NCBI GenBank assembly: GCA_964631365.1
Contig: CAZVZW010000003.1
Span: forward strand, 1 to 41,002
Reading direction: 5' to 3'
Length of the DNA stretch: 41,002 bases
Source: an uncultured Chloroflexota bacterium
Lineage (GTDB): Bacteria; Chloroflexota; UBA11872; VXNJ01
Shown here: positions 5,491 through 28,250 of the stretch, one piece after another
Layout: each line of letters begins with the position of its first letter
Position numbering within the stretch: position 1 is the first letter of the stretch
Made by a program: the position numbers and the translations under genes
The notes under the pieces: model-generated
What the model was told of the DNA's origin: nothing
The model's input: the letters and a program-made list of their open reading frames with translations, nothing else
Databases searched by the model: none

Positions 5491-5507
5491 GCTATCCACC
5501 GACCTCG

Positions 5508-5933: not shown

Positions 5934-6854
5934 TTGACGGCAGCCAATCCCAAGGTATTCGATCCCGTGGCGGAGGGGGAGGCCTCCAGCAAGGTGCGCA
6001 GCGAGTGGTTGCTGGCGTGGTACCGGTTCCGCCGCAACAAGGGCGCGATCGTCGGCGGGATCATCCTAGCGGTGATAGCCACGATCGCGGTGTTCGCGGA
6101 CGTGATCGCGCCGTACGATCTGAGCGAGTACGAAACGGGCATGGAAGGGTTTCTGGCCCCCCCCGGCAGCCCCGGTCACCTGCTGGGCACCGACGACTTC
6201 GGCCGCGACGTCTTGAGCCGCGTGATCCACGCGTCGCGAATCTCACTACGGATCGGGATTGTGGCCGTCGTCATCGGATCGATCGGCGGCACCCTCATCG
6301 GATTGACGGCCGGATTCATCGGCGGCCGGACCGATTGGAGCATCAGCCGCGTCCTGGACGTCATGCTGGCGTTCCCGGGAGTTCTGCTCGCGATCGTGAT
6401 CGTGTCGTCGCTCGGGCCCGGCCTGACCAATGCGATGATCGCGCTGGGAGTATCGGCGATCCCGTACTACGCGCGGGTGGTGCGGGGATCGACGCTGGCG
6501 GCGCGGGAACTGGTGTATGTGCGGGCGGCGCGGGCGGTGGGGATGAGCGAATTTCGAATCATGCTGCGCCACGTCCTGCCGAACATCATCAGCCCGATCA
6601 TCATCATGGTCACGCTCGGCATGGCGACCAGCATCATCGCGGCGGCGGGTCTGAGCTTCCTGGGCCTGGGGGCGGTGCCGCCGACTCCCGAGTGGGGCCT
6701 GGAGCTGTCGGTGGCGCGGCGGCTGTTGCGGATCGCGCCTTGGATTGGAATCTCCCATGGGGTGGCGATCTTCGTCACCGTAATGTCGATCAACCTGCTG
6801 GGCGACGGCCTGCGCGAGGCGCTGGACCCACAGGCCACATCGTGGGTCAAGTGA
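5934..6854 (+). CDS. ABC transporter permease (DppC/OppC-like)
   Basis: ORF 5934..6854 with TTG start; GTG 5967 is an alternative. Membrane-spanning pattern and the conserved cytoplasmic loop ARAVGMSEFRIMLRHVLPN. G-ending codon style begins here. Confidence 0.85.
   Translation: MTAANPKVFDPVAEGEASSKVRSEWLLAWYRFRRNKGAIVGGIILAVIATIAVFADVIAPYDLSEYETGMEGFLAPPGSPGHLLGTDDFGRDVLSRVIHASRISLRIGIVAVVIGSIGGTLIGLTAGFIGGRTDWSISRVLDVMLAFPGVLLAIVIVSSLGPGLTNAMIALGVSAIPYYARVVRGSTLAARELVYVRAARAVGMSEFRIMLRHVLPNIISPIIIMVTLGMATSIIAAAGLSFLGLGAVPPTPEWGLELSVARRLLRIAPWIGISHGVAIFVTVMSINLLGDGLREALDPQATSWVK
6827..6843 (+). other. Intercistronic stem-loop TGGCGC-GAGTA-GCGCCA upstream of the binding-protein gene
   Basis: Perfect 6-bp stem with a 5-nt loop and no following T-run. 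It is preceded by the AT-rich patch 6855-6890, which contains TAGATA. Confidence 0.4.
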
Positions 6855-6969
6855 GGTTATATCGAATTATTTAATCTAGATACTGAGTGCTCCAGCCGGA
6901 ATCCCCGATGGGACTCCGCATTCCGTTGGCGCGAGTAGCGCCAGTAAACATCCAAGGGAGGATGTAGAC

Positions 6970-8886
6970 ATGAGAGCATTGAAAACATTGAGTCGACGAC
7001 GGCTCATTCAGGGCAGCCTGGTGGGTGGCGTAGGGGCGATCGCCCTGGCCGCCTGTGGCGAGACCGAGGAAGTCGTCCGAGAAGTCCCGGTCGAGGTCGT
7101 CAAAGAAGTCCAGGTCGCGGGCGAGACCATCGTTGAGAAGGTCGAGGTAGAAGTCCCGGTTGACCGTATTGTCACGGTCAAAGAGGAAGTCGTCCGAGAA
7201 GTCCCGGTCGAGGTCATCCGCGAGGTCGAGGTCGAAAAGGTCGTCGAAGTCGAAGTGATGGTCGGCGGCGCGGACGCGCCGGACGACGTCTTCTCGATCG
7301 GGCCGATCACCGCGGTGCGCATGGGCGCGGCGCGCGATGTGACCCCGTGGAACCCGCGACGTGGGGGGACTATCACCCATGGCTCGCCGTCGAGCATCAA
7401 CAATCTTGACCCGCTGCACATGCCGGACGGCTGGTCGCTGATGGCCGGCGGACAGCCGTTGTACGACGGGCTGATCGCCTACGGCCCCGGGGCGACGTTG
7501 CAGCCCTGGCTGGCCGATAGCTGGGAAATTTCCGACGACCTCATGACCTACACCTTCCACCTGCGCCAGGACGTGAAGTTCCACGATGGGACTCCGTTCA
7601 ACGCGGCGGCGGCGGTGTTCAACTTTGAGCTCTGGATGGACCCGGCCAACACCCCGGGCGCGGTGGCCAACGTGGCCTCGCAGATCGAGCGGGTGGAAGC
7701 TTCCGACGAGTTCACGCTGGTGATCACGCTGAACGCCCTCAACGTGTTCTTCATGAACGACCTAGTGGCCAACCAGGGCGGGGTTGTGTTTGCGTCGCCG
7801 GCGGCGATCGAGGAGTTCGGCGAAGACCTGACCCGGAACCCGGTCGGCACCGGCCCGTTCAAGTTCAGGGAGTGGAAAGAGAACCTGTCGCTGACACTGG
7901 ACCGGTTCGACGACTACAACTGGGGCCCGCCCTGGGCGCGCAACCGTGGCCCGGCCTACCCGGACACATTCATATCGTTTGAGATGACCGATGTGGCGTC
8001 GAAGATGGCGGCCTTCGAGGCCGGTGAAGTGGGCTTCATGCAGCACTTCAGCCTGACCGAGTTGCAGCCATTCTTTTCCGACCCGGGCACGGCGATCCAC
8101 CTGCACCTGATTCCGGGGCAGCCGTGGTACCTACAGACGAACGCCTCACTGTTTCCGACCGACGACGTGATCGTGCGCCGGGCGCTGATCCACGCGGTCG
8201 ATCGCGGCACGGTGACCCGTGGCGTGACGCTCGGTTTCGGAGCCCTCGCCGGCAGCCTGCTGGTACCGGGCACGGTGGGCTTCAACCCCGAACTGGAAGG
8301 CATGTACGAGTTCGACATCGCCAAGGCCAACAAGCTGCTTGACGATGCCGGCTACCTGCGCGCCGAGGATGGGTTCCGCTATACGCAGGACGGCCAACTG
8401 CTGGAAGTGGACTTCCCGGACACGCCGAACCCGTTCTCGCAGCCTTACAAGCTGAACATTGAGAACGCGATCGGCATCTCGGTGATCACGCCCAACATTG
8501 AGTGGGGCACGGCGGTCGAGGGCTACCTGGTGGGCAAGCACACCCACAAGTGGCAGGGCGGAGTCGGCGTGGAGGGCGGCGTTGTAATGAACACCGTCTA
8601 CCACTCGGACAACTTCGGCGTACCGGGCAACCGGGCGTTCACGTGGTACTACGACGACGTTCTGGACGGCCTGCTAGATCAGGTGAAGCAGGAGCCGGAT
8701 GTCGAGAAGCGTGCCGAGATCACGAACAAGGCCCACACCATCTTGATGGATCAGGCCCTTGGAATCCCGCTGGTGGAATGGGGCAGCCTGTTCCCGACGA
8801 ACACCAGCCTGGTCGGCGGCAGCGTGTTCCACGGAATCTCGCAGACGCCGTACACCTTCGACCTGTACTCGACGGACGAGGGATAG
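6970..8886 (+). CDS. ABC transporter substrate-binding lipoprotein, family 5 (peptide/nickel/opine type)
   Basis: ORF 6970..8886 with SD GGGAGGA 7 nt upstream. Tat-like SRRRLIQ signal plus lipobox LAAC (Cys codon 7054-7056), then a V/E-rich repeat linker, then a long family-5 binding-protein body. Confidence 0.9.
   Translation: MRALKTLSRRRLIQGSLVGGVGAIALAACGETEEVVREVPVEVVKEVQVAGETIVEKVEVEVPVDRIVTVKEEVVREVPVEVIREVEVEKVVEVEVMVGGADAPDDVFSIGPITAVRMGAARDVTPWNPRRGGTITHGSPSSINNLDPLHMPDGWSLMAGGQPLYDGLIAYGPGATLQPWLADSWEISDDLMTYTFHLRQDVKFHDGTPFNAAAAVFNFELWMDPANTPGAVANVASQIERVEASDEFTLVITLNALNVFFMNDLVANQGGVVFASPAAIEEFGEDLTRNPVGTGPFKFREWKENLSLTLDRFDDYNWGPPWARNRGPAYPDTFISFEMTDVASKMAAFEAGEVGFMQHFSLTELQPFFSDPGTAIHLHLIPGQPWYLQTNASLFPTDDVIVRRALIHAVDRGTVTRGVTLGFGALAGSLLVPGTVGFNPELEGMYEFDIAKANKLLDDAGYLRAEDGFRYTQDGQLLEVDFPDTPNPFSQPYKLNIENAIGISVITPNIEWGTAVEGYLVGKHTHKWQGGVGVEGGVVMNTVYHSDNFGVPGNRAFTWYYDDVLDGLLDQVKQEPDVEKRAEITNKAHTILMDQALGIPLVEWGSLFPTNTSLVGGSVFHGISQTPYTFDLYSTDEG
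7066..7215 (+). repeat. Perfect 33-bp in-frame direct repeat (7066-7098 and 7183-7215) inside the V/E-rich linker
   Basis: GAGGAAGTCGTCCGAGAAGTCCCGGTCGAGGTC occurs twice, 117 nt (39 codons) apart. Each copy encodes EEVVREVPVEV. Confidence 0.95.
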
Positions 8887-8937
8887 GGAACGTTCGGTAG
8901 ATAGGATCAAGTAACCCGGAACTGATCAGGCGCAGAC

Positions 8938-9885
8938 GTGGCCAAATACCTTGCATTGCGACTCCTGGCGGCCATACCAGTGCTGCTGGGAGTGCTAGTC
9001 ATCGTGTTTGTCCTGCTGCGCCTGATCCCGGGTGATCCGGTCGATATCATTTTTTCCGGCCGCGGCGCGGGCGCCTCAAGCGCGCGCACGACCGGTGATG
9101 CAGTGGAGCGGTTGCGGGAGGCCTATCACCTGGATCGCTCGATCCCGGTGCAGTTCCTGTACTACCTGCGTGACGTCGTCACCGGCGATTTCGGCCGCTC
9201 CTTTCGTACCAACATCCAGGTCGGCGACCTGATCAAGGAACTCTTCCCACAGACCCTGCAACTGACCATGGCGGGGATGGGAGTGGCGCTTTTTGTCGGG
9301 ATCCTGGCCGGGGTGATCTCGGCGATCCGCCACCATACGTGGGTCGACTATGTGGGCCAGTTCGTGGCGGTCTTTGGCGTCTCCATCCCGGACTTCTTTT
9401 TCGGGCTGGTCATGATCTTCATCTTCAGCATATGGGCTGGCTGGCTCCCGGCGATCAGCGGTGACAAACCCATCGGCCTCATCATGCCCGCGATCACCCT
9501 GGGAGTTAGCTCGGCGGCCATCCTGGCCCGCCTAACGCGATCTTCGATGCTGGATGTGATGAGCCGGGATTTTATTCGCACCGCCCGCGCCAAGGGCCTC
9601 AAAGAGGGCAAGGTAGTTTGGCGCCATGCGTTTCAGAACGCCCTCATTCCGGTAATCACGATTGTGGGCCTGCAGTTCGGCAGCCTGCTAACCGGCGCGA
9701 TCGTCGTCGAGGTTGTGTTCACCCGGCAGGGCCTGGGATTCGAACTTGTGAATGCGGTGGTCACACGCAACTACCCGGTGGTGCAGGCGCTGGTAATGAT
9801 GGCATCGCTCGTGTACGTGGTCATGAATATTCTCGTCGATACCCTCTACACCTACGTCGATCCGCGCGTGCGGATTCAAACGTAG
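8938..9885 (+). CDS. ABC transporter permease (DppB/OppB-like)
   Basis: ORF 8938..9885 with GTG start. Conserved loop IRTARAKGLKEGKVVWRHAFQNAL. Confidence 0.9.
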   Translation: MAKYLALRLLAAIPVLLGVLVIVFVLLRLIPGDPVDIIFSGRGAGASSARTTGDAVERLREAYHLDRSIPVQFLYYLRDVVTGDFGRSFRTNIQVGDLIKELFPQTLQLTMAGMGVALFVGILAGVISAIRHHTWVDYVGQFVAVFGVSIPDFFFGLVMIFIFSIWAGWLPAISGDKPIGLIMPAITLGVSSAAILARLTRSSMLDVMSRDFIRTARAKGLKEGKVVWRHAFQNALIPVITIVGLQFGSLLTGAIVVEVVFTRQGLGFELVNAVVTRNYPVVQALVMMASLVYVVMNILVDTLYTYVDPRVRIQT

Positions 9886-9907
9886 CCGGCCGTGGGCTGA
9901 CGGGCCG

Positions 9908-10888
9908 ATGATACTGGGACTTTCGCAGGCGTCGTATCGCTGGGTCGCCTACCCGGGGCTGCGCATCGATCAGCCGGAGTACGGCTTTCGCGGCATGCCC
10001 TTCCCCTACGGCAGCACTACCGGGGGCCTGCGCGAGTTTGACGACAACATCGGCTGGTGGCTGGATCGCTGCGCCGAGTGGGACCTGGAAGTTCTGTACC
10101 TGGCTATGAGCTGGTTCAAGGACGAGGCGGCGGTGGTGGCGAACGCCCGGGAGATGGCCCGGCGCGGGATCGATTGGATCGGCTCGGTGAGCGGGGCCTG
10201 GGCGGTGCCGGAGGAAGAGTGGCCGGAATGCCGGGCAGAGGCGCGCCGGAAACTGGAGTTGGCGGCGGCGGCGGGAATGAAGACGACCGTGATCGTGAAC
10301 GCCGACCCGCCGGGCGCCGAGGGCCAGCCGGTGCCGAACGGCGGGCTGCGCTTCGGGCACTTCAGCCGCGAGATCGCGATCGACCAGCAAATTGAGAACA
10401 TGATCCGCAACCTGGGCGAGTTCGTGGCGGTGGCCGAGGAATGCGGAGTGCGGCTGGCCTACGAAAATCACATGGACTACCGGATCAGCGAATTGGTGGA
10501 GGTGGTGGAGGGGGTGGACTCGCCGTGGCTGGGTATCTGCTACGACTTCGCCAACAGCTATTCGGTGGTGGAAGACCAGCTGCAGGCGGCGCACCGGGCG
10601 GCGCCCTACACGCTGGTGACCCACGTGAAGGACATGCGGGTGCAGTCGATCACCACCACCGGCGAGCCGCGCTTTTTCCTGACCCCGATCGGGTACGGCG
10701 ACGTGGAGGTGGCAGAGATATTTGAGGTCCTGCAACAGGGGGCACCGGACGCGGACAACCTGCCCAATTGCGCGTCGCCGCCGTGCCTGCCGGAGTTCGA
10801 TCCGCAACTCTGGATGAAGTTGAGCGTGGAGTGGCTGGGGGCGAACTGCGCGGGGTACTTCCCGAGACGTTTTCAAACGGCGGCGTGA
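9908..10888 (+). CDS. Xylose-isomerase-like TIM-barrel protein (sugar phosphate isomerase/epimerase family), paralogue A1
   Basis: ORF 9908..10888. Motif order AYENH ... YDFAN ... THVKD. At the position where A2, A3 and A4 have C-x-E, it has C-A-S (Ser codon 10775-10777). Confidence 0.8.
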   Translation: MILGLSQASYRWVAYPGLRIDQPEYGFRGMPFPYGSTTGGLREFDDNIGWWLDRCAEWDLEVLYLAMSWFKDEAAVVANAREMARRGIDWIGSVSGAWAVPEEEWPECRAEARRKLELAAAAGMKTTVIVNADPPGAEGQPVPNGGLRFGHFSREIAIDQQIENMIRNLGEFVAVAEECGVRLAYENHMDYRISELVEVVEGVDSPWLGICYDFANSYSVVEDQLQAAHRAAPYTLVTHVKDMRVQSITTTGEPRFFLTPIGYGDVEVAEIFEVLQQGAPDADNLPNCASPPCLPEFDPQLWMKLSVEWLGANCAGYFPRRFQTAA

Positions 10889-10913
10889 TGCACACCAACT
10901 GGAGCGGCAAGAA

Positions 10914-11900
10914 ATGAGACTGGGACTGTCACAAGCGGCGTACCGCTGGGTATCCTACCCGGGCCTGCGGATCGACCAGCCGGAGTACGGGTTTCGCGGC
11001 ATGGCTCATCCGTACGGCACGGTGACCGATGGCCCGGTGAGCATGGACGAGGCGCCGGTGGAGTGGTGGGCGGATCGCTGCGACGAGTGGCACCTGGATT
11101 CGCTGTACATGGCGACCTCCTGGTTTACGACCGAGGCGCAGTACAAGGCAGCGGCAACGACGCTGGCGGACCGGAATATCGAATGGATCGGCTCCCTGGG
11201 GATGGCCTGGGCGCTGGAGCCAGACGAGTGGCCGGCGATCCTGGACGACGCCACCTTCGCGCTGGAGCAGATGCAGGGCGTGGGCGTGACGATGACGGCG
11301 ATGGTCAACACTGATCCGCCGGGGGCCGAGGGGCAGCCGGTGCCGAACGGCGGGTTGCGCTTCGGACACTTCAGCCGGGAGATCCCGATGGCCCGGCAGA
11401 TCGAAAACCTGACCCGCAACCTGTCCGAACTGGTGAAGGTGGCGGAGAAGACGGGGATCGTACTGGCCTTCGAAAACCACATGGACTACCGCATCAGCGA
11501 GATCGTGCAGGTGGTGGAGGCCGTCGACTCGCCGTGGCTGCGGATCAACTACGACTTCGCCAATTGCTACTCGGTGGTGGAAGACCAGGTGGAGGCGGCG
11601 CACCTTGCGGCGCCCTACACGGTGATGTCGCACATCAAGGACATGCGGGTGCAGTCGATCACCACCACCGGCGAGCCGAAGTTTTTCCACGCGCCGCTGG
11701 GCTACGGCAACGTGGAGATACCGGAGATCCTGGAGATCCTGCAGCAGGGCTCGCCGGAGCCGGATTCGATTTCGCACTGCATCGAGACCTGCTGCCTGCC
11801 CGAGTACGACCCGCAGCTGTGGATGAAGCTGAGCATCGAGTTCCTGGAGACCGAATGCGCGCAGTATTTCAAATCGCGTCCGCCCGTGAACGCTTCGTGA
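10914..11900 (+). CDS. Xylose-isomerase-like TIM-barrel protein, paralogue A2
   Basis: ORF 10914..11900. Roughly two-thirds identical to A1 by eye. Motifs AFENH ... YDFAN ... SHIKD ... CIE (Glu codon 11784-11786). Confidence 0.8.
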   Translation: MRLGLSQAAYRWVSYPGLRIDQPEYGFRGMAHPYGTVTDGPVSMDEAPVEWWADRCDEWHLDSLYMATSWFTTEAQYKAAATTLADRNIEWIGSLGMAWALEPDEWPAILDDATFALEQMQGVGVTMTAMVNTDPPGAEGQPVPNGGLRFGHFSREIPMARQIENLTRNLSELVKVAEKTGIVLAFENHMDYRISEIVQVVEAVDSPWLRINYDFANCYSVVEDQVEAAHLAAPYTVMSHIKDMRVQSITTTGEPKFFHAPLGYGNVEIPEILEILQQGSPEPDSISHCIETCCLPEYDPQLWMKLSIEFLETECAQYFKSRPPVNAS

Positions 11901-12940
11901 ACCCGGAATCGAGTGTCGCCGTGCTAACTCCGGACGCCCCGTTGGAGGCGATCGGCCCGGGTGGGCCGGGACGCTTCAAGGTGCTGATCACCGGGGTGTT
12001 CCTGCCGCACACCGAAATGGAAATCGCGGCGCTGGCGGACATCGCCGACGTGGTCGTCAATCGGGAGCCGAGGCGAGATGAGTTGCTGGCGCTGGTGGCG
12101 GATGTGGACGCGCTGATGGTGGATATCTCGCCGGTGGACGCCGAGTTGCTGGAACACGCGCCGCGGCTGAAGGCGGTGGTCATGTACGGGGTGGGGACGG
12201 ACCACATCGACGGCGTGGCGGCGGCGGCGCGCGGCGTAGTGGTGTCGAATACACCGGAGGCGTTTTCGACCGACGTGGCCGAGCACGCGATGGCGTTGCT
12301 GCTGGCGCTTTCGCGCGGGGTCGGCAAGGCCAACGCCGAGATACGTACGCGACGCGAGTGGGACCCCTACGGCGCGGGCCACGCACCGGTGCGGTTGCAC
12401 GGCAAGACGCTGGGGTTGATCGGGATCGGGCGGATCGGCCGCGAGACCGCGCGGATCGCGGCCGGGCTCGGCATGCGGCTCCTGGCCTATGACCCCTATG
12501 TTGATCGAGCCGGGTTCCGGCGGCTGCCGGGAGTGGCGATGGAGTTCTGCGACGACCTGGCGGCGCTGCTGGCCGAGGCCGACGCCGTTAGCCTGCACGT
12601 GCCGCTGACGGAGGAGACGCGGCGGCTGATCGGGAAGCCGGAACTGGAAGCGATGAAGCCGGGGGCGTTCCTGGTGAACGTCTCGCGGGGCGCGCTGATC
12701 GATCTGCCGGCGCTGCGGGAAGCCCTGGAAGGCGGCCGGCTGGGCGGGGCGGGGCTGGATGTGTTTGTGCCCGAGCCGCCCGACTGGGACGACCCGCTGT
12801 TGGTGGCGCCGAACCTGGTGCTGACGCCGCACATGGGCTGGCGGTCGGACCTGTCGGAATTGGAAGTCGAGATGGGGGCAGTGGCGGAAGTCCGGCGGAT
12901 CTTGCTGGGTGAGGGGCCGAAGTTCCGGGTGAACGGATGA
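11897..12940 (+). CDS. D-isomer-specific 2-hydroxyacid dehydrogenase (phosphoglycerate-dehydrogenase-like)
   Basis: The real gene is the 3' part of ORF 11534..12940. GTG 11897 overlaps the upstream stop (GTGA); GTG 11921 is an alternative. NAD site GLIGIGRIGRE; motifs NVSRG, LDVF.PEP, TPHMGW. Confidence 0.8.
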   Translation: MNPESSVAVLTPDAPLEAIGPGGPGRFKVLITGVFLPHTEMEIAALADIADVVVNREPRRDELLALVADVDALMVDISPVDAELLEHAPRLKAVVMYGVGTDHIDGVAAAARGVVVSNTPEAFSTDVAEHAMALLLALSRGVGKANAEIRTRREWDPYGAGHAPVRLHGKTLGLIGIGRIGRETARIAAGLGMRLLAYDPYVDRAGFRRLPGVAMEFCDDLAALLAEADAVSLHVPLTEETRRLIGKPELEAMKPGAFLVNVSRGALIDLPALREALEGGRLGGAGLDVFVPEPPDWDDPLLVAPNLVLTPHMGWRSDLSELEVEMGAVAEVRRILLGEGPKFRVNG

Positions 12941-19185: not shown

Positions 19186-19212
19186 GGGCGGGCCGCACCC
19201 GGGCAGGGTAGG

Positions 19213-20382: not shown

Positions 20383-20393
20383 GAGGCAGGATC

Positions 20394-21371
20394 ATGAGTT
20401 GGGAACCACGGTTTTCGGTCGGTCTCTACCATCACTTCGGGCCGCATTTTGTGGACCAGCCGTCGAACGACGAAATCGACGCGGCGTTCGTGAGCCTGGA
20501 CCGGGTGCCGGACGTGGCCGGGGTGGAGTTCTTCGCCAACACGACGGTGACGCCACGAAACGCGGCGCACATCCGCCGGCGGCTGGACGAGCGGGGGCTG
20601 GAATGCTCGATGCTGCATCACGGGGAGCCCTATGTGCGCGGGGTGATGACGGATGCGGCGCTGACGTCGCCGGCATTGCCGGACCGGCAGACGGCAGTCG
20701 ATATGTGTCTGCGGGCGGTGGAGGTGGCGCAGGCGCTGGACGCCATGGGCATCTATGTCTTCACGCCAATGGACGGGGCGGACTATCCGTTCCAGCAGGA
20801 TTTCGCGGCCGCGCGGCGTTACACCATCGATGCGTTGCACGAAATCTGTGAGGCTGCCGGCAACCTGAAGGTGGCGCTGGAGTTTCGGCCCTATGCACCG
20901 CGCGGCTGGGCGAACGTGGGCTCGGTGAGCAAGGCGCTGGAGCTGGTGCTGGCGGTGGACCGGCCGAACCTGGGTATCCAACTCGAGGTCAGCCACACGC
21001 TGATGAGCCTCGAAAATCTGGCGCAGTCGACCTGGGAGGCGGCCCACCGCGGCCTGCTTTATCACGTGCACCTGAACGACACCCAGCTGCCGCAGGACCT
21101 GTCGACGATCTTCGGCAGCCAGCATTTCTGGGAGTGCCTGGAGATGATGTACTGGCTGCAGGAGACGGAGTATCCGCACTACCTGGGGCTGGACGTGGTT
21201 TGGACCCGCGAGGACGGCGCCGGCAGCGGCAGGCAGTTCATCCGCAATACTCAGTACATGCTGCGGGTGCTGGACGCGATCGACCGGCCGGTGCTGGCGG
21301 AGGCGATGGCGCGGAACGACGTCCTTGCGACCCAGGACCTGCTGTGGACGGCACTGCGGGAGACCTCCTGA
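20394..21371 (+). CDS. Xylose-isomerase-type TIM-barrel sugar isomerase (short form)
   Basis: ORF 20394..21371 with SD AGGAGG. EFRPYAPRG, QLEVSHTLM and HVHLND resemble the EPKPNEPRG, E.GH and HIDLN motifs of class-I xylose isomerases, but the protein is only 325 aa. Confidence 0.7.
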   Translation: MSWEPRFSVGLYHHFGPHFVDQPSNDEIDAAFVSLDRVPDVAGVEFFANTTVTPRNAAHIRRRLDERGLECSMLHHGEPYVRGVMTDAALTSPALPDRQTAVDMCLRAVEVAQALDAMGIYVFTPMDGADYPFQQDFAAARRYTIDALHEICEAAGNLKVALEFRPYAPRGWANVGSVSKALELVLAVDRPNLGIQLEVSHTLMSLENLAQSTWEAAHRGLLYHVHLNDTQLPQDLSTIFGSQHFWECLEMMYWLQETEYPHYLGLDVVWTREDGAGSGRQFIRNTQYMLRVLDAIDRPVLAEAMARNDVLATQDLLWTALRETS

Positions 21372-21419
21372 GGTGCGGCTCTGCGTGACGGCGGGTCCGC
21401 GCGAGATGGTGGCGGTGCG

Positions 21420-22361
21420 ATGAAGCTGGGGATGTCGCAGGCGTGCTACCGGTGGGTGTTCTACCCGCAGATGCGCCGCGACCGCCCGGAACACAAGTCG
21501 CTGGGGCGGCCGTCGCCGTACCTGCAGACGGTGGCCGGGCCGGGAGTGGGGGAGAGCCCGCGGGATTGGCTGATCGAGCGGACCGCCGGGCACGGGTTCG
21601 AGTCGCTGTATATGAGCTCGGGGTACCTAGGGGACGATGAGGATGTGGCGGTGTTTCGCGACGGGATGGCGGCGCGCGGCCTGGAACTGATCGGCGGGTT
21701 GGGTCTGACGGTGGCGGCGGAGGCGGACGAGTGGGACGGGCAATTCGAGCGCTGCGTGAGCGATATTCGCACGATGGCGCGGGCCGGGGCCAGGTTCGTG
21801 GCGGCGGTGAATGACAAGCCGGACAGCCTGAACCACTTCACCCGCGATCCGTCGATCGATGAACAGATCGAGCGGGCGATCGCGAACTTCAAATCACTGC
21901 TGCCGGTGTGCGAAGAGGTGGGGCTGCGACTGGCGTTCGAGAATCACCTGGACTACCGGATTTCGGAAGTTGTGCAGGTCGTGGAGGGGGTCGATTCGCC
22001 CCGGCTGGGGATCAACTTCGATACCGGCAACCCGGTGGCGGTGATCGAGGACCCGCTGGTGGCGGCGCGGGCGGCGGCGCCGTATGCGATCAACGCCCAC
22101 CTGAAGGATTTCCGCATCCAACCGGCGACCAGCACCGGCGAGCCACGCATCTTCTGGACGCCGCTGGGGCGGGGCGACGCGCCGATCGCGGAGATGGTGG
22201 CGATCCTGGCGAAGGAGGCCCCCGACGCGACGACGCTGTCGGCGTGCGTGGAGGTGGCGCCGCCGCCGGAGCACGACCCGGCGGTGTGGGTGCAGGCGAG
22301 CGTGGACTGGCTGCGCGAAAACTGTGCGGAGCACTTCCCGGGCATCGACGGTGGGCCATGA
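21420..22361 (+). CDS. Xylose-isomerase-like TIM-barrel protein, paralogue A3
   Basis: ORF 21420..22361. Same N-terminal signature as the others (MKLGMSQACYRWVFYP). Motifs AFENH ... NFDTGN ... AHLKD ... CVE. Confidence 0.8.
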   Translation: MKLGMSQACYRWVFYPQMRRDRPEHKSLGRPSPYLQTVAGPGVGESPRDWLIERTAGHGFESLYMSSGYLGDDEDVAVFRDGMAARGLELIGGLGLTVAAEADEWDGQFERCVSDIRTMARAGARFVAAVNDKPDSLNHFTRDPSIDEQIERAIANFKSLLPVCEEVGLRLAFENHLDYRISEVVQVVEGVDSPRLGINFDTGNPVAVIEDPLVAARAAAPYAINAHLKDFRIQPATSTGEPRIFWTPLGRGDAPIAEMVAILAKEAPDATTLSACVEVAPPPEHDPAVWVQASVDWLRENCAEHFPGIDGGP

Positions 22362-23356
22362 GGTTGGGGCTCTCGCAGGCGACCTACCGCTGGGTCTGCT
22401 ACCCGTGGCTGCGTTTTGACGTGCCGGAATTCCGCTACTCGGAGCGGCGACTGCCATACTTCATGTCGGTCGATCCGCCCGAGACCGGGGGGGCGCCGGT
22501 GGACTGGCTGGTGGACCGGGTGCTCGAGCACGATCTGACCTCGCTGTACATGGAGGCGGGCTGGCTGGCGGAGGGGAAGGCGGCGGGGTTCAAGCAGCGG
22601 ATGGAAGCCGGCGGACTGGCGTTTATCGGGTCGTCTTCGGCCAACCTGGCCGCCACCGCCGAGGAATGGGGCGACACCACCTATCCGTTGCCGGACGCGG
22701 CGCGGGAGCGACTCAGCTACCGGCCGACCGTTGGCGATCACGGCTGGGCCGGCGGCAGCCAGTTTGCGGTGTTGGTGCGGGCGCTGGAACTGGCGGCGGA
22801 GGGCGGGGCGAAGATCATCAACGTGGTCCACGACTACCCGGAGCGCCACAACCATTTCACCCAGGACCCACCGGTCGAGCGGCAGATCGAGCGGATGATC
22901 CGCAACTTCCGCTCGCTGGTTCCGGTGGCCGAAAAGCTGGGAATCGTGATGGCGACCGAGTCGCACATGGATTACCGCTGCGCGGAACTGCTGGCGGTGA
23001 TGGAGGCGGTGGACTCGCCGTGGCTGCGGCACTGCTTTGACTTCGCGAACCCGATAACGGTCATCGAGGACCCGCTGGACGCGGTCAAGCTGGTCGCGCC
23101 CTACACGGTGGTGACGCACATCAAGGACATGCACGCGCGGCCGATGACGAGCCTGGGGGAGCCGCGGTTCTTTCACGCCCCGATCGGGTACGGCGATGTG
23201 CCGGTGGCGGCGATCCTGGAGGTGCTGCAGTCGGAAGCGCCGGACCCGGACAACCTGGAGCACTGCCTGGAGATCGTCCCGACCTCGGAATATGACCCGG
23301 AGGCGTGGTTGGCGGCCAGCCTGGAATGGCTGCGGACGGAATGCGCGAAGTTTTAG
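22358..23356 (+). CDS. Xylose-isomerase-like TIM-barrel protein, paralogue A4
   Basis: The real start is ATG 22358 inside ORF 21908..23356, with ATGA overlap to A3. N-terminus MRLGLSQATYRWVCYP. Motifs ATESH ... CFDFAN ... THIKD ... CLE. Confidence 0.8.
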   Translation: MRLGLSQATYRWVCYPWLRFDVPEFRYSERRLPYFMSVDPPETGGAPVDWLVDRVLEHDLTSLYMEAGWLAEGKAAGFKQRMEAGGLAFIGSSSANLAATAEEWGDTTYPLPDAARERLSYRPTVGDHGWAGGSQFAVLVRALELAAEGGAKIINVVHDYPERHNHFTQDPPVERQIERMIRNFRSLVPVAEKLGIVMATESHMDYRCAELLAVMEAVDSPWLRHCFDFANPITVIEDPLDAVKLVAPYTVVTHIKDMHARPMTSLGEPRFFHAPIGYGDVPVAAILEVLQSEAPDPDNLEHCLEIVPTSEYDPEAWLAASLEWLRTECAKF

Positions 23357-23390
23357 AGCTAGCCGGCCGCGGCCGGGATTGGAGAGCCGG

Positions 23391-24212
23391 ATGGGTACGG
23401 ATCGAACGCGGGCGGTGATCAGCCCCCGGGTGAACCCGGTGACGCGGGCGCTGAGGGCGGGGAAGGTGGTGCTGGGCTCGTGCAGCATCGCGTTCGGCAG
23501 CGTGCCGACGGCGCAAATCTTCGCGGCGGCCGGGTTCAGTTTCAACTACTTCGACCTGGAGCACAGCCAGACGAGTCTGGAGGATCTGGCGGCGATGTGC
23601 GCGGTGTCGAAACTGGCCGGCGCGGTGCCGATCGTAGGCCCGTCGAGTATCGGCGATCACCTGATCGGGCGGCCGCTGGATGCCGGGGCGATGGGGGTGA
23701 TCGTGCCGCATGTGTCGACGGCGGAGGAGACGAGACGAGTGGTGCAGTACTCGCGCTACGCGCCGGTAGGTATCCGCGGGCTGGTGTCACCGGGAATCCT
23801 GACCGAGTTTGAGTCGCCGGATGGCTCAGACTGGGTCGAGTCCCAGAACCGCGAGATCCTGGTGGCGGTGAAGGTGGAGAGCGGAACGGGGATTGACAAC
23901 ATTGAGGAAATCGCCGCGGTGCCGGGCCTGGACGCGATCCTGATCGGCACCGGGGACCTCTCGGCAACGCTGGGGATACCGGGGCAAACCGGGCACGCCG
24001 ACGTGGTCGATTGCATCGAGCGGATGCTGGCGACGGCCAACAAGAACGGCGTGGCCGGCGGGCCGCACGTAGGCAGCGCGGCGGACGCCGCGCACTGGGC
24101 GGACCGGGGTGCGCGGTTCATGAGCGTGAGCTTTGACGCGGCGATGTTGCTGGAGGTGGCGGCCGGGGCGGTCAGCGATGCCCGCGCGCGCCTCGGCGAC
24201 CGGATGCTGTGA
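23391..24212 (+). CDS. HpcH/HpaI family 2-keto-3-deoxy-acid aldolase
   Basis: ATG 23391 inside ORF 23196..24212, with SD GGAGAG. Motifs FDLEHS, VIVPHVSTAEE, VKVESGTGIDNIEEIAAVPGLDAILIGTGDLS. Confidence 0.8.
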   Translation: MGTDRTRAVISPRVNPVTRALRAGKVVLGSCSIAFGSVPTAQIFAAAGFSFNYFDLEHSQTSLEDLAAMCAVSKLAGAVPIVGPSSIGDHLIGRPLDAGAMGVIVPHVSTAEETRRVVQYSRYAPVGIRGLVSPGILTEFESPDGSDWVESQNREILVAVKVESGTGIDNIEEIAAVPGLDAILIGTGDLSATLGIPGQTGHADVVDCIERMLATANKNGVAGGPHVGSAADAAHWADRGARFMSVSFDAAMLLEVAAGAVSDARARLGDRML

Positions 24213-24240
24213 TGTCCCGCCGGGCGAAGCGACGCCTCCC

Positions 24241-25011
24241 TTGAATAATCGCCTTGAACTGACCATTACCGAACTCGACGGCGGTTCGGCACCGGTATCG
24301 GTTGACGTTGGGGCGGTGCGCGGGGCGGGGCTCTGCGTGCGCGATCGCGCGGCGGCGGGGCGGGAGCAGGAACGGCGGCGCGCGGCCGGCGAGCCGTGGC
24401 ATTCGAGCGATCTCTTCACCTACCGGATCGGCCGCCACTTGGCGACGACCGACGCCAGCATCGAGGTGCAGGGGCCGCTGACCGGCGGCGAGGCGGAAGT
24501 GGTGGTGATCTTCGTCGGGGAAGAGGTTCTGATCGGAGTCGGCAGCGACCAGTGCGACCGGGAACTGGACGCGCTGTTCCTGGAGAAACCGAAGCAGCTC
24601 TGCCCGCACCCGCTGGGCCGCCGGGTCTGGCGCTATGCGGATGTGGAGGATCATTGGGATGAGCTGCGGGTTGAGGCCGAGGTTGAGATAGATGGGAAGG
24701 CCGTGGCGATCCAAAGCTTCGCGCTGGCGGAACTGGTGACCTTCGACACGCTGCTGGCGACTGACGCGCTGCGGGAGCGCCCGGACGGGACGGTGTTCTA
24801 TTGCGGGACCGGCGGGGCGCCGCCGGGGGCGGTGGCGGAGATCGCGCGGCTGGGGCTGCCGCCGGAGACGATTTCCGGGGTAGGCGAGGTGTTCCGGATG
24901 CGCCTGTACGACCCGGTGCGGGATCGCGAGTTGCGGCACGAGTACCGGGTAGAGGTGCTGGGGGATCACCTGGCGGATCGCCGCCTGGATGACGGGGAAG
25001 ACGCGCGATGA
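24241..25011 (+). CDS. DUF2848-like protein of unknown function
   Basis: 3' part of ORF 24133..25011. TTG 24241 is the only in-frame start after the upstream stop, and there is no clear SD. GSDQCDRELD...KPKQLCPHP and the overall layout match my recollection of DUF2848 (GSDHTDRE...SKQ.C.KP). Confidence 0.55.
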   Translation: MNNRLELTITELDGGSAPVSVDVGAVRGAGLCVRDRAAAGREQERRRAAGEPWHSSDLFTYRIGRHLATTDASIEVQGPLTGGEAEVVVIFVGEEVLIGVGSDQCDRELDALFLEKPKQLCPHPLGRRVWRYADVEDHWDELRVEAEVEIDGKAVAIQSFALAELVTFDTLLATDALRERPDGTVFYCGTGGAPPGAVAEIARLGLPPETISGVGEVFRMRLYDPVRDRELRHEYRVEVLGDHLADRRLDDGEDAR

Positions 25012-26162
25012 AGATCACCGACGTGAAGCACTTCGCGGTGAAGGTCGGGTTTCGCTGCCGCTTCGTGGTGAAGGTGGAGACCGACGCCGGGATCCACGGG
25101 CTGGGAGAAGCCGGCACGGCCGGGCGGGAACGGGCGCTGGCGGGAGCGATCGACCACTTTCGTGAGTTCCTGATCGGGCAGGACCCGCGGCGGATCGAGG
25201 ACATCAACCAGGTGCTGTACCGGTCGCAATACTTCGAGGGCGGGACGATCATCACGGCGGCGGCGTCAGCGATTGATATCGCGCTGTGGGACATCCTGGG
25301 CAAGCACCTCGGAACGCCGGTGTGGCAGTTGCTGGGCGGGGCGACGCGGCAGGAAGTGACCTGTTTCGCGGACCTGATCTCCGGCGAGGGCGAGACCTGG
25401 GCGGAGCGCGGGGCGGACCTTGTGGAAAAGGGCTGGGGGACGATCCGCTGCGCGCCGGGGATGCCCGATGACTTCGAACGGCTCGCGGACACGATCTATG
25501 AGCCGTGGGAGTCGATGCAATGGACGGCGGAGCGGCTGCGGGAGTTGCGCGCGGCGGTGGGGCCGGGAATACGGCTGGCGGTGGACTTCCACCACCGGCT
25601 GAGTGTGGCCGAGGCGGCGGAGTTCTGCCGGATGATCGACGACGTGGGACTGATGTTCTTGGAGGAGCCGATCCGATCGGAGAGCCCGGATGCCTACGCG
25701 GCATTGCGGGCGATGACCGCGATGCCGTTCGCGATCGGCGAGGAGTTCTCGGGGATCTACGTGTTTGCGCCGTTCATCGAGCGCGGGCTGTGCAACTACG
25801 CGCGGCTGGATGTCTGCAACGTGGGCGGGTTCACCGCATCGCGCAAAGTGGCGGCGATGGCCGAGGCGCACTACATCGACGTGATGCCGCACAACCCGCT
25901 GGGGCCGGTGTCGACGGCGGCGGCGGTGCATTTCGCGATCGCGACGCCGAACTTCGCGCTGCTGGAATACAACTGGGACGTGCGCCATCAACCCGAAGAT
26001 CTGTTCCCGCGGGTGATGCACATCGAAGGTGACCGGTTCCCGATCCCGACCGAGCCGGGGCTGGGGGTGGATTTTGACGAGGCGGCGGCGGCGGACTACC
26101 CGTTCGAGTACTGGGAGCCGCCCCACTGGCGCCGGCGCGACGGCTCGTACACAAACTGGTAG
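25008..26162 (+). CDS. Enolase-superfamily dehydratase, copy 3 (mannonate-dehydratase-subgroup-like)
   Basis: ORF 25008..26162 with ATGA overlap. N-terminus MKITDVK. Motifs VDFHHR ... LEEP ... IGEE ... ARLDVCNVGG ... PHNP. Confidence 0.85.
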   Translation: MKITDVKHFAVKVGFRCRFVVKVETDAGIHGLGEAGTAGRERALAGAIDHFREFLIGQDPRRIEDINQVLYRSQYFEGGTIITAAASAIDIALWDILGKHLGTPVWQLLGGATRQEVTCFADLISGEGETWAERGADLVEKGWGTIRCAPGMPDDFERLADTIYEPWESMQWTAERLRELRAAVGPGIRLAVDFHHRLSVAEAAEFCRMIDDVGLMFLEEPIRSESPDAYAALRAMTAMPFAIGEEFSGIYVFAPFIERGLCNYARLDVCNVGGFTASRKVAAMAEAHYIDVMPHNPLGPVSTAAAVHFAIATPNFALLEYNWDVRHQPEDLFPRVMHIEGDRFPIPTEPGLGVDFDEAAAADYPFEYWEPPHWRRRDGSYTNW

Positions 26163-26169
26163 GCGCGAC

Positions 26170-27192
26170 ATGATCCTGGATAGCCGTGAATGGGACGCCC
26201 GCTACGGCCCGGACGTGCTGGCGGAGCACGCCGCGGAACTGGACGACTGCATCGCGATCACCTCGCCGAGTGCGTGGGCGGTGGTGGAGCCGAGGCTGGT
26301 CCACTCGCCGCGCCATCGCGAATTCCACGGCGGCATGGGCGAGGCCTACCTGGACGATCTGCTCGGGCGGCTGCCGGGGGCGGGGCGGGTGGTGGCGATC
26401 GGTGGGGGCAACGCGCTGGACGTGGGCAAGTACGTGGCGTGGCAAAAGGCCCTGCCGCTGGTGATGATCCCGACGATCGTCTCGACCGGAGCGGTATTCC
26501 AGTCGCCGGTGGCGGTGCGGCGGGCGGATCGGTGGGAGTTCTGCTGGGAGACGGTGGCGCCCGAGTACTTGTTGTTTGATTACGGCGTGATCCGGTCGGC
26601 GCCGGCGCACCTGAACCGGGCGGGGATGGGGGAGTGCGTGTGCCAGCTGGGCGGGAACGGGGCGTGGCGCTGGTGGGGCCGGCATGGTTTCGGCGGCCTG
26701 CCGTTCGACCCGGAACTGGCGGCGGGGACGGCGGCGTGGGTGCGGGAGCGCTGCGCGGAGTTCAGCGGAGACCTGGACGCGGACGGGCAGCCGGGCGAAA
26801 TCGGTATCCGCATCGCGGCGGAGATCAACCGCGAGCGCTACGATCTGCCGACGTGGGATATCGAGCGGCGCGGCGTGGATCACGCCTTCGTGATCGCGTT
26901 TGAGTGGGTAAACCGCCGGGAGTTGATCCATGCGGAGGGGGTGTCGCTGGGATCGCTGATCGGCGCGTATCTGTACGAGGCGGATTTCGCGGAGACGAAG
27001 CGGCTGCTGGACGGTTGTGGGGTGCGGTACCAGCCGGCCGAGATCGGCTGCACCCACGCTGAGGTGCGGGAGACGCTGGCGCGGATCAACGAGCCGGTGG
27101 GACCGAGTGGGCCGGAGAACTGGTTTCATCGAAAGACGCTGGACGATGCGACGTTCGACGTAATGATGACGGCGATTGAGTCAGGAGAATAG
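26170..27192 (+). CDS. Iron-containing alcohol dehydrogenase superfamily protein (glycerol-1-phosphate dehydrogenase/AraM-like)
   Basis: ATG 26170 inside ORF 26029..27192. Motifs GGGNALDVGKYVA, IPTIVSTGA, and later DHAF / IHAEGVSLG histidines. Confidence 0.65.
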   Translation: MILDSREWDARYGPDVLAEHAAELDDCIAITSPSAWAVVEPRLVHSPRHREFHGGMGEAYLDDLLGRLPGAGRVVAIGGGNALDVGKYVAWQKALPLVMIPTIVSTGAVFQSPVAVRRADRWEFCWETVAPEYLLFDYGVIRSAPAHLNRAGMGECVCQLGGNGAWRWWGRHGFGGLPFDPELAAGTAAWVRERCAEFSGDLDADGQPGEIGIRIAAEINRERYDLPTWDIERRGVDHAFVIAFEWVNRRELIHAEGVSLGSLIGAYLYEADFAETKRLLDGCGVRYQPAEIGCTHAEVRETLARINEPVGPSGPENWFHRKTLDDATFDVMMTAIESGE

Positions 27193-27200
27193 GGATAGAT

Positions 27201-28250
27201 ATGAGTGTGAAGGCAGACGCGGGCGGCGGGGTACTGCGGGTGGGGCTGGTCGGGGCCGGTGGGTTCGGGATCGAGATCGCGAAGATGATCGCGCGACTGC
27301 CGGAACTGGACCTGGCCGGGGTGGCGGATGTGGACATCGCGGCGGCCCGGGCGTTGGGGGAGGAGTACGGCGCACCGTCCTGGGGCGATCACGCGGCGCT
27401 GCTGGCGGAGTGTAAGTGTGCGGCGGTGGCGGTGTCGACGCCGCACAACACCCACCGCGAGATCGTGGTGGCGGCGGCGGTGGCCGGGCGGCACATCTTT
27501 TGCGAGAAGGCGATGGCGATCAACGTGGCGGAGTGTCACGAGATGATCCGCGCCGCCGAGGAGAACGATGTGAAGCTGATGGTGGCGCACAAGCGACGGC
27601 TGCGCCCGACGTATGCGGAGATCAAGCGTCTGCTCGACGGCGGTGAATTCGGCCGGCCGATGGCGATTAACGTGGCCGGTTACTTCGGGCGCACGCTGAC
27701 CGGTTGGTGGAACAGCCGGGAGGCCTGCGGCGGGCTGATCTACTGGGCCGGGGTGCACGATATCGACACGATGCGCCACCTGATGGGCGAGGTTTCGCGG
27801 GTGCACGCGGTGACCGGGCCGAAGCTGTATCCGGACATCACCGACTACGAGGACTCGATCGCGATCACGCTGGAATTCGCCAGCGGGGCGGCGGGGTCGG
27901 TGCAGGTGTCGACGTTCTACCCGATGGCGACGTACCGGACGTCATTCGACTACGAGATCGTGTGCGAGAACGGCGGTATCGCCTACGACTCGCGGCAGGT
28001 GGCGATCCACTCGCAACTAAAGGACCGGCCGCTGGCGACGACGTTCTTCGAGGGCTACGGGCATGACGTGGCGTACGACGAAGAGTGGTCGAGCTTTGCC
28101 GGCTGGGTGCTGCGCGGCGAGGCCCCGGTGCTGACCGGGGAGGACGGTCTGCGCTGCGTGGAGATAATGCAGGCGGCCTACATTTCGGTGGCCAACGGCG
28201 CGCCGGTGGACCTGCCGCTGGCGACCGACGACCGGCGACCCTGGGGGTAG
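27201..28250 (+). CDS. Gfo/Idh/MocA family oxidoreductase, copy 2
   Basis: ORF 27201..28250. Rossmann segment VGLVGAGGFG and an EK(P)-type motif HIFCEKAM. Last gene of the + strand block. Confidence 0.85.
   Translation: MSVKADAGGGVLRVGLVGAGGFGIEIAKMIARLPELDLAGVADVDIAAARALGEEYGAPSWGDHAALLAECKCAAVAVSTPHNTHREIVVAAAVAGRHIFCEKAMAINVAECHEMIRAAEENDVKLMVAHKRRLRPTYAEIKRLLDGGEFGRPMAINVAGYFGRTLTGWWNSREACGGLIYWAGVHDIDTMRHLMGEVSRVHAVTGPKLYPDITDYEDSIAITLEFASGAAGSVQVSTFYPMATYRTSFDYEIVCENGGIAYDSRQVAIHSQLKDRPLATTFFEGYGHDVAYDEEWSSFAGWVLRGEAPVLTGEDGLRCVEIMQAAYISVANGAPVDLPLATDDRRPWG

Follow-up and report, generated by a model that had tools for sequence, protein, structure and literature searches.

Nineteen genes lying head-to-tail on one contig of an uncultured marine Chloroflexota bacterium (GenBank assembly GCA_964631365.1, contig CAZVZW010000003.1) raise the question of whether such a run serves the breakdown of one imported compound or is a collection of separate pathways that have come to lie side by side. 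The genes, referred to here as g1–g19, occupy positions 5934–28250 on the + strand of the 41,002-nt stretch of DNA that we analysed (the window), and encode a peptide-type ATP-binding cassette (ABC) importer, a predicted HyuA/HyuB ring-opening pair, five xylose-isomerase-like TIM barrels, several dehydrogenases, and acid-sugar enzymes. We compared about 120 related loci (labelled below with L numbers), onto which all of the window proteins were mapped by tblastn, and found that the 19-gene block is not widely conserved as a unit. What is conserved is a kernel consisting of the Opp/Dpp importer, HyuAB with a zinc-ribbon tail, two Gfo/Idh/MocA (Gfo) dehydrogenases and pairs of TIM barrels from a rare subfamily which we have named TIM-X, and the parts of this kernel stay together through at least three gene arrangements. 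The acid-sugar tail of the block, g15–g19, is a recent, lineage-specific addition.

The stretch corresponds to contig MPMF02370727.1 of a metagenome assembly, near-identical contigs are present in other assemblies, and the close HyuB relatives all come from Chloroflexota metagenome-assembled genomes, with one bin labelled Gemmatimonadetes and one Actinobacteria (many of the bin names suggest a probable sponge origin). The full 19-gene order together with its flanks recurs solely in close relatives (78–97% HyuB identity), among which are loci that share 97% (L056), 83% (L067 and L075/L084) and 82% (L011) HyuB identity with the window, while L074 is a partial locus covering g11–g19 at protein identities of 70–86%. 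The flanks conserved with the block are a Gfo and an IclR gene upstream, and MBL hydrolase, amine oxidase and RraA genes downstream. As the same gene order is found on independent contigs at ~80–83% and 97% identity, it must have been inherited and is not an assembly accident. We note that the HyuB and OppF matches in L056 are split, possibly because of frameshifts or assembly errors.

Comparison of the loci resolves the block into four modules: an IclR gene divergent from OppC–binding protein–OppB–TIM–TIM (M1), an optional TIM–2-hydroxyacid dehydrogenase pair followed by HyuA–HyuB–OppD–OppF (M2), enolase–xylose-isomerase-like barrel–TIM–TIM (M3), and HpcH aldolase–DUF2848–enolase–FeADH-like–Gfo (M4). 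Three further arrangement types, B–D, have altered gene orders and are found at ~70% HyuB identity. In type B, a Gfo gene on the – strand is divergent from TIM–2-hydroxyacid dehydrogenase–HyuA–HyuB–OppD–OppF–enolase–xylose-isomerase-like barrel–TIM–TIM–BNR propeller and there are no counterparts of g15–g19; some of these loci also have a 2–3 kb insertion of MFS and GT87 genes after OppF, i.e. between the g10 and g11 counterparts. Type D has a creatininase-family gene followed by HyuA–HyuB–OppD–OppF. Type C (L066, L102, L103, L089 and L081) consists of two convergent operons, one with a – strand Gfo gene and HyuA–HyuB–OppD–OppF–BNR–unassigned gene, and the other with Gfo–OppC–binding protein–OppB–TIM–TIM. 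This splits one Opp-type transporter, with its ATPases placed with HyuAB and its permeases and binding protein placed with TIM-X and Gfo, and thereby links the importer to the ring-opener as well as to the sugar enzymes; we regard this split as strong qualitative evidence for the linkage.

The strength of association was counted in 26 species-representative genomes having a long-form HyuB and at least 9 kb of sequence on each side of it. OppDF was directly downstream of HyuB in 26/26, and TIM-X and Gfo were each found within 10 kb in 25/26 (figures which overstate independence, as discussed below). The g11-type enolase representing M3 was found in nine of these genomes, and g15 and g17, representing M4, in one. 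The initial annotation of this DNA had suggested that the importer, the hydantoinase-type pair and the sugar enzymes form one pathway, to be checked by looking at gene neighbourhoods, and this check bears out the linkage of the importer, HyuAB, Gfo and TIM barrels beyond the window and across at least three arrangements. The suggestion is not supported for the acid-sugar tail, which was found in only 1/26 genomes, with DUF2848 (g16) absent even from the 97% relative L056, where g15 and g17 are separated by 47 nt (L056:19118–19165).

The physical layout of the block was confirmed by open reading frame (ORF) listing, start-codon inspection and Pfam scans, and bears out the initial annotation: the nineteen genes are co-directional, there are seven 4-nt start/stop overlaps (GTGA at 11897, and ATGA at 12937, 15039, 17135, 18136, 22358 and 25008), the widest gap is 115 nt (6855–6969) with every other gap being no more than 51 nt, and the block is preceded by a 592-nt region of lower guanine-plus-cytosine (GC) content (5342–5933; 0.615 compared to 0.669 in the block) and a divergent IclR-family gene. 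Corrections are needed, as the ABC ATPase genes are located mid-block (g9 and g10), apart from the permease and binding-protein genes, and a second Gfo gene behind the IclR gene (3379–4506, – strand) is part of the conserved set. No terminator-like hairpins were found in the intergenic gaps of the block, and the three terminator-like matches within it all lie in coding sequence, with shuffled sequences giving more (7.7). The sequence is consistent with a single transcript and translational coupling. The upstream region includes a strong sigma-70-like match, a putative promoter site, TTGACA-17-TAGATT (5735–5763, + strand; 10/12 positions), which is the sole match of this type in 5000–24999, and a palindrome, TTCCAGTGGAA, can be read from the sequence ~10 nt 3' of the –10-like hexamer. 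The block is probably under the control of one IclR-regulated promoter. The IclR gene (4499–5341, – strand; Pfam HTH_IclR and IclR_C) scored under the cut-offs of NCBIfam BhcR, PcaR and IclR, and has syntenic homologues in L084 (65%) and L081 (57%); gene callers favour a 259-amino acid (aa) version starting near 5278. We also note that the motif TTCATGAA is present twice in the control region (5279–5940) and that a perfect G/C hairpin, CCCCCCCCGGCG/CGCCGGGGGGGG, is located at 5300–5324, where the longest IclR ORF has its 5' end.

Two general explanations for the block were rejected. A recent foreign origin is at odds with the GC content, which is ~67% across the whole window and varies between 0.61 and 0.72 in 1-kb steps with no local shift across the block. 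A biosynthetic cluster was rejected because the block includes an importer and the protein families are exclusively of the catabolic type.

Central to the kernel are g7 (HyuA, 12937–15042, + strand; Pfam Hydant_A_N/Hydantoinase_A/Hydant_A_C) and g8 (HyuB, 15039–17138, + strand; Pfam Hydantoinase_B), which are encoded side by side by genes overlapping by 4 nt and have Pfam scores of 309 and 578 bits to Hydantoinase_A and Hydantoinase_B, respectively. The best NCBIfam matches are to the caprolactamase alpha (521 bits; 520.8) and beta (338 bits; 337.8) subunits, neither of which reaches the CapA/CapB equivalog cut-off of 1000 (NF050156/NF050157). Among solved structures, the highest scores were to N-methylhydantoinase (277 bits) and to 6yra_B (272 bits), which is labelled 'Hydantoinase' in the PDB search and which we take to be caprolactamase. 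A carboxylase function was considered and rejected, as carboxylases in the PDB scored only 70–112 bits compared to 272–277 bits for the hydrolases; NCBIfam acetone and acetophenone carboxylases scored 113–300 bits against cut-offs of 1250–1500. Judged by these scores, HyuAB sits on the hydrolase side of the family, and at the family level g7 and g8 are a predicted ATP-dependent cyclic-amide hydrolase pair of the hydantoinase/oxoprolinase type.

HyuB ends in a tail of ~60 residues with four conserved cysteines (16950–17138, corresponding to HyuB residues ~640–699), in which the zinc-ribbon-like Cys4 pattern takes the form C-x2-C-G ... DG-x2-FCS-x2-C followed by YWLPRY. No Pfam match of the tail to the acetone carboxylase gamma subunit was seen at E ≤ 1. 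On a Sulfitobacter plasmid (L134:11702–11896), the same Cys4 pattern is encoded by a separate ORF of 64 aa that immediately follows hyuB, and because of this the motif suggests that a small third subunit has been fused onto HyuB in the Chloroflexota. Directly upstream of HyuA in arrangement types A and B is a D-isomer-specific 2-hydroxyacid dehydrogenase gene, which in the window is g6 (11897–12940, + strand; Pfam 2-Hacid_dh and 2-Hacid_dh_C), whose NCBIfam matches were under every cut-off.

The importer is a complete Opp/Dpp family-5 system by Pfam, with a binding protein, OppB and OppC permeases, and two oligo_HPY ATPases. It is encoded by g1 (OppC-type permease, 5934–6854; OppC_N and BPD_transp_1), g2 (family-5 solute-binding lipoprotein, 6970–8886; SBP_bac_5, 3e-64), g3 (OppB-type permease, 8938–9885; BPD_transp_1_N and BPD_transp_1), and by g9 and g10 (OppD and OppF ATPases, 17135–19185; ABC_tran and oligo_HPY), all on the + strand, where g9 overlaps HyuB by 4 nt. 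The best PDB matches of g2 were 5u4o, HbpA and DppA, with AgaA (6hlx) ranked eighth at 116 bits, and g2 fell far under the cut-offs of the NCBIfam equivalogs DppA, OppA, NikA, GsiB and CntA. The solved relatives of g2 bind peptides, haem/glutathione, nickel, opines and oligosaccharides. Ahead of its family-5 domain, g2 begins (6970–7300) with a twin-arginine (Tat) signal (SRRRLI) and a lipobox (LAAC), which are joined to the domain by a repetitive stretch of ~70 residues rich in Glu and Val; this N-terminal part gave no usable Pfam match at E ≤ 1.

All five TIM barrels have Pfam AP_endonuc_2 domains, which agrees with the number given in the initial annotation; however, they are not a uniform set. 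The TIM-X subfamily comprises the tandem g4 (9908–10888) and g5 (10914–11900), plus g13 (21420–22361) and g14 (22358–23356), which overlap by 4 nt, with paralogue identities of 39–63% overall (g4/g5 63%, g13/g14 42%, and 39–43% between the two pairs). The remaining barrel, g12 (20394–21371), is a true xylose-isomerase-like protein with no significant similarity to g4, g5, g13 or g14 and with PDB matches of 81 bits to 3ktc and ~50 bits to classical xylose isomerases (all five genes are on the + strand). TIM-X proteins are scarce, as a search of 1.84 billion proteins gave only 26 representatives at E ≤ 1e-30, and a PDB sequence search with g4 returned no relative at E < 0.001. An AlphaFold2 (AF2) model of g14 (pLDDT 90) has a standard xylose-isomerase-like barrel whose closest folds (TM scores of 0.54–0.66) are the Art22 isomerase (0.66), UlaE, IolI (0.63), ketose 3-epimerases, DgpBC (0.54) and YcjR, at sequence identities of no more than 19% (IolI 11%). 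As this search returned the whole xylose-isomerase-like class with no clear nearest function, the modelled fold fixes the likely class of chemistry (keto-sugar isomerase, epimerase or eliminase) and not the reaction. The g13/g14-type pair is adjacent or overlapping in every arrangement type, and the number of g4/g5-type copies varies between two and four, with four in tandem in L067 (2817–6833) and L084 (7980–11993). Distant TIM-X members adjoin Gfo genes in glycan-degrading contexts without HyuAB.

The two Gfo dehydrogenases of the kernel are u3 (3379–4506, – strand; Pfam GFO_IDH_MocA plus C-terminal domains), upstream of the block, and g19 (27201–28250, + strand; identified by Pfam) at its end. 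The best NCBIfam match of u3 was to levoglucosan dehydrogenase (103 bits compared to a cut-off of 650), and loci of types A, B and C have a homologue of it (52–64%) upstream of, and divergent from, their HyuAB operon. For g19 the best NCBIfam match was to IolG (167 bits compared to a cut-off of 355) and the PDB matches were inositol dehydrogenases and DgpA-type enzymes at 58–103 bits; homologues of g19 (57–63%) head the permease–TIM operon in L081, L089 and L103.

The acid-sugar enzymes include two dehydratases of the enolase superfamily, GalD/ManD subgroup: g11 (19213–20382, + strand; Pfam MR_MLE_N/C) and g17 (25008–26162, + strand; Pfam). The score of g11 to NCBIfam galactonate dehydratase (285 bits) is just under the cut-off of 311, while g17 scored 283 bits to the same family and 273 bits to ManD (cut-off 550), and the top PDB matches were galactonate and mannonate dehydratases (~200 bits for g17). 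An HpcH/HpaI-type 2-keto-3-deoxy-acid aldolase is encoded by g15 (23391–24212, + strand; Pfam HpcH_HpaI), which is under the cut-offs for NCBIfam GarL, HpaI and KDR aldolase. The oxidoreductase g18 (26170–27192, + strand) resembles Fe-ADH_2 and glycerol(-1-phosphate) dehydrogenases (Pfam Fe-ADH_2, 41 bits), with PDB matches to glycerol-1-phosphate and glycerol dehydrogenases of no more than 48 bits limited to residues ~57–167, and a homologue (57%) is found beside DUF2848 and enolase genes on a Planctomycete-like contig (L071).

Between the aldolase and the second dehydratase lies g16 (24178–25011, + strand, with an ambiguous start at 24178 or 24241; Pfam DUF2848). A PDB sequence search with DUF2848 gave a chance match only, with no sequence-level match to solved structures. 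A fold search with the AF2 model of g16 (pLDDT 88.6) returned the fumarylacetoacetate hydrolase (FAH) fold in 15/15 PDB matches at E ≤ 0.001, headed by 2-keto-3-deoxy-D-arabinonate dehydratase, at TM scores to FAH structures of only about 0.5. In an alignment of 33 DUF2848 sequences, residues E105, E107, D124 and K139 were invariant, of which E105, E107 and D124 may form an acidic metal triad. DUF2848 genes elsewhere lie among enolase, HpcH aldolase and Fe-ADH genes, and this would be the first structural placement of the family, as predicted FAH-fold enzymes of acid-sugar pathways.

How might these proteins work together? Our preferred reading, which we hold tentatively and consider quite possible though short of probable, is that four catabolic modules have been fused head-to-tail in the particular lineage of this free-living marine bacterium, and that the resulting block handles one imported cyclic-amide carbohydrate compound. 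The g2 lipoprotein would capture a non-peptide, nitrogen-containing compound of the carbohydrate type having a cyclic amide, possibly a lactam or hydantoin of a sugar or cyclitol, or else an Amadori or opine-like conjugate that has cyclised, and the Opp system would import it; this class of substrate is one that we infer from the protein families. HyuAB would then open the ring, spending ATP, the Gfo enzymes would convert a secondary alcohol to a keto group, and the TIM-X pairs and g12 would act on the positions around that keto group by isomerisation, epimerisation or elimination. In the window lineage only, the added tail of two GalD/ManD-type dehydratases, the FAH-fold DUF2848 protein, the HpcH aldolase and two further dehydrogenases would convert the resulting sugar acid to pyruvate and a small aldehyde or alcohol. 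If the kernel does act on one imported compound, it would represent a new catabolic logic in which ATP-dependent ring opening is combined with keto-sugar chemistry.

A number of observations weigh against such a reading. None of the block enzymes reaches any curated NCBIfam equivalog cut-off, and activities can therefore be assigned only at the family level. The 26 genomes used for counting the kernel represent ~3–4 independent arrangements, many from related sponge-associated lineages, which is why the 25–26/26 figures overstate independence. Type B loci have OppDF without adjoining permease or binding-protein genes, and L012, a 78% relative, has HyuAB without OppDF. M3 and M4 come and go among relatives and DUF2848 is dispensable, and this variability weakens the expectation that one substrate needs all of the enzymes. 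Ordinary peptides, nickel and oligosaccharides are also among the ligands of family-5 binding proteins. Finally, the closest HyuAB homologues in the plasmid collection (45%) are found with an aminotransferase gene and in one case also with a succinate-semialdehyde dehydrogenase gene, a layout which is that of a plain lactam to omega-amino-acid pathway without sugar chemistry.

A broader claim, that long-form HyuAB–OppDF with TIM-X and Gfo is an undescribed ATP-driven route for the import and dismantling of carbohydrate-derived cyclic amides in marine Chloroflexota, we consider unlikely; as part of it, the hosts would be free-living SAR202-like cells and sponge symbionts, and the candidate substrates glycosylated hydantoins, lactams of amino-sugar acids and Amadori products in cyclised form. 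Were it true, dissolved organic nitrogen of the amide type that withstands ordinary hydrolases would have a hidden sink in this route, and the tandem TIM-X paralogues would handle different stereoisomers. The hosts of the kernel are abundant yet barely cultured ocean and sponge bacteria, and the Tat-lipoprotein binding protein, the zinc-ribbon-fused HyuAB and the rare TIM-X proteins are suitable for testing against amide-rich dissolved organic matter.

The same variability invites a different explanation, in which the block is a catabolic island where separate small pathways have drifted into a co-oriented run in a genome rich in enolase, aldolase, dehydrogenase and TIM-barrel paralogues, sharing a promoter at most and no substrate. 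One of these could serve a lactam or hydantoin and include the importer, one or two could be non-phosphorylative routes for sugar acids, and another could be a set of keto-sugar isomerases. We regard the island as doubtful, yet still a serious possibility, and the block would then be an ordinary product of such genomes. It is favoured by the modularity seen in the 9/26 and 1/26 counts for M3 and M4, by the absence of DUF2848 from a 97% relative, by the variable TIM copy number, by the MFS and GT87 insertion between g10 and g11 counterparts in some type B loci, and by DUF2848 itself, which forms an independent trio with enolase and FeADH-like genes on the contig from another phylum (L071) and lies in a different sugar-ABC/aldolase context in related Chloroflexota. 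SAR202 Chloroflexota, to which our contig may or may not belong, are also described as having very large sets of enolase, aldolase and dehydrogenase paralogues for parallel sugar-acid pathways, with 80 enolase-superfamily paralogues in cultured SAR202 (PMC10444878, PMC6946804), and this makes a chance juxtaposition of M3 and M4 more likely a priori. Against the island stand the survival of the kernel through three rearrangements, including the one that splits the transporter, the presence of a single importer in the block, and six consecutive 4-nt or near-zero junctions binding TIM-X, the 2-hydroxyacid dehydrogenase, HyuAB and OppDF.

Two narrower explanations assign the functions differently. 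HyuAB might be an N-methylhydantoinase or 5-oxoprolinase for creatinine, hydantoin or pyroglutamyl-peptides within a nitrogen-scavenging cassette, with Opp importing peptides or small heterocycles and the sugar enzymes as bystanders, and we judge this decidedly improbable. The closest solved HyuAB relatives (N-methylhydantoinase and 6yra_B), the presence of DppA and HbpA among the nearest solved relatives of the binding protein, and the proximity of a creatininase-family gene in loci of types C and D all fit such a cassette. Creatininase and N-methylhydantoinase lie on alternative branches of creatinine breakdown, however, and the similarity to the solved enzymes is modest (~275 bits) and under the NCBIfam cut-offs. 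Marine Dehalococcoidia are reported to carry genes annotated as N-methylhydantoinase (PMC7506110), and work on sponge microbiomes reportedly ties methylhydantoinase to creatinine use (PMC6742649). No gene for creatininase, creatinine deaminase or carbamoylsarcosine amidase is present in the window, and a creatinine pathway there was rejected on finding no creatininase, CE4 or related genes. A scavenging cassette leaves unexplained the retention of TIM-X and Gfo in 25/26 loci and the permease and binding-protein genes that travel with them. Alternatively, the system might be one for the oxidative cleavage of glycosides or C-glycosides, in which Gfo oxidises C3 and a TIM-X heteromer eliminates the aglycone in the manner of DgpA/DgpBC, CarABC or 3-keto-glycoside systems, leaving HyuAB to take a lactam- or hydantoin-type aglycone or an unrelated compound. 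This is the least probable of the explanations considered, even though Gfo occurs with paired, putatively translationally coupled TIM barrels, the g14 fold matches include DgpBC and YcjR (a 3-keto-glucoside epimerase), DgpA-type enzymes are among the g19 sequence matches, weak NCBIfam matches were seen to glycoside 3-dehydrogenase families, and the kernel adjoins glycoside-hydrolase-like and BNR-propeller genes in types B–D. The g14 folds do not discriminate (a TM score of 0.54 to DgpBC compared to 0.66 for Art22 and 0.63 for IolI), there is no small DgpB-like subunit, both members of each TIM-X pair being full-length paralogues, and the NCBIfam scores are far under the cut-offs.

Neither the plasmid collection nor literature searches yielded a characterised locus syntenic with the block, and this gene set was not found in the literature on Chloroflexi, SAR202 or sponge hydantoinase/oxoprolinase, agropinic acid or Art22, in keeping with the view in the initial annotation that there is no characterised pathway with these genes. 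The precedent it had given from Ti plasmids was also borne out, as the octopine plasmid NC_002377 has a peptide-type (family-5) ABC importer divergent from, and adjoining, a FAD oxidoreductase with HyuA and HyuB. This is the agropinic/mannopinic-acid catabolic region with its aga/moa genes, where by published genetics the importer, HyuAB and flavoprotein handle a sugar-lactam opine. The identities to the block are 40% for HyuA (g7), 33% for HyuB (g8) and 27% for the binding protein (g2), and because these are so low, the proteins are not orthologues (other plasmid HyuAB proteins are closer to the block than those of Ti). In contrast to the block, the Ti HyuB, encoded by a gene of 1653 nt, has no zinc-ribbon tail, the ABC ATPases of the Ti importer occur as a fusion placed with the permeases and not with HyuAB, and there are no TIM-X, Gfo, enolase or aldolase genes. 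The Ti locus has its oxidoreductase with HyuAB, whereas the block has none inside it and a flavin amine oxidase 1.3 kb downstream on the opposite strand.

Comparisons with other systems are similarly partial. Caprolactamase CapAB and N-methylhydantoinase (PDB 7HK5) belong to the same Hydantoinase_A and Hydantoinase_B family and are the best NCBIfam and PDB matches, but the block scores are about half the CapAB equivalog cut-offs or less, its beta subunit has the extra Cys4 tail, and its HyuAB genes lie between ABC ATPase and sugar-enzyme genes, unlike the closest plasmid homologues beside an aminotransferase gene. IolG/IolE/IolI, DgpA/DgpBC, YcjS/YcjR and LgdA/LgdB share the same logic, in which an NAD-dependent dehydrogenase acts on a secondary alcohol and is paired with metal-dependent TIM barrels working beside the keto group so formed, and the modelled fold of g14 matches this class; TIM-X is nevertheless a separate and rare subfamily, and the IolG and levoglucosan dehydrogenase cut-offs were missed. 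The myo-inositol iol system is not matched, since IolD (a thiamine pyrophosphate enzyme), IolB and the IolC kinase are absent from the window, and neither is DgpA/DgpBC (CarABC), as the block has no heteromer of a TIM barrel and a small subunit. Non-phosphorylative acid-sugar pathways as described for SAR202 (PMC10444878), in which a dehydratase of the GalD/ManD/RhamD type is followed by a KDx aldolase or a FAH-type dehydratase, are closer to the tail, in that g11, g17, g15, g16 and g6/g18 would make such a route; here the equivalog cut-offs were missed, DUF2848 is uncharacterised, and the fusion to the HyuAB–importer kernel is found only in the window lineage.

Several neighbouring genes recur with the block or its kernel. 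The flavin amine oxidase mentioned above (d3, 29553–31256, – strand; Pfam Amino_oxidase/DAO), which lies outside the block, has homologues (55–65%) beside the block or kernel in L075, L081, L007 and L014, and is a possible C–N deconjugating enzyme. A second HyuA/HyuB pair (31743–38072; 42–46% to g7/g8) has an RraA-like gene and a class-III aminotransferase gene as its neighbours, a layout that is nearer to the plasmid lactam to omega-amino-acid layout than that of the block; the HyuB2–RraA part is directly upstream of the block in type B relatives and downstream in the window. A 520-aa ORF (38797–40359) has 25–28% identity to ~500-aa proteins that recur next to HyuAB–OppDF in related genomes, one of which has a weak BNR_2 match, and no usable Pfam match was found at E ≤ 1 for this ORF, for ORF 28991–29500 or for a 547-aa partner protein. 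In loci of types B, C and D (L007:14241–16184, L066:14191–16080 and L021:18469–20427), OppF or the TIM-X pair is followed by a 630–650-aa BNR/Sortilin-type double-propeller protein, which has no homologue in the window and in which visual inspection of the N-terminus showed no obvious signal peptide. At the other end of the window, upstream of the Gfo–IclR pair, positions 37–3129 encode a third GalD/ManD-type enolase (38–42% to g11/g17) and an MFS transporter, and homologues of this enolase (64–68%) adjoin a g19-like Gfo and a short-form HyuB in the Chloroflexota loci L050–L054.

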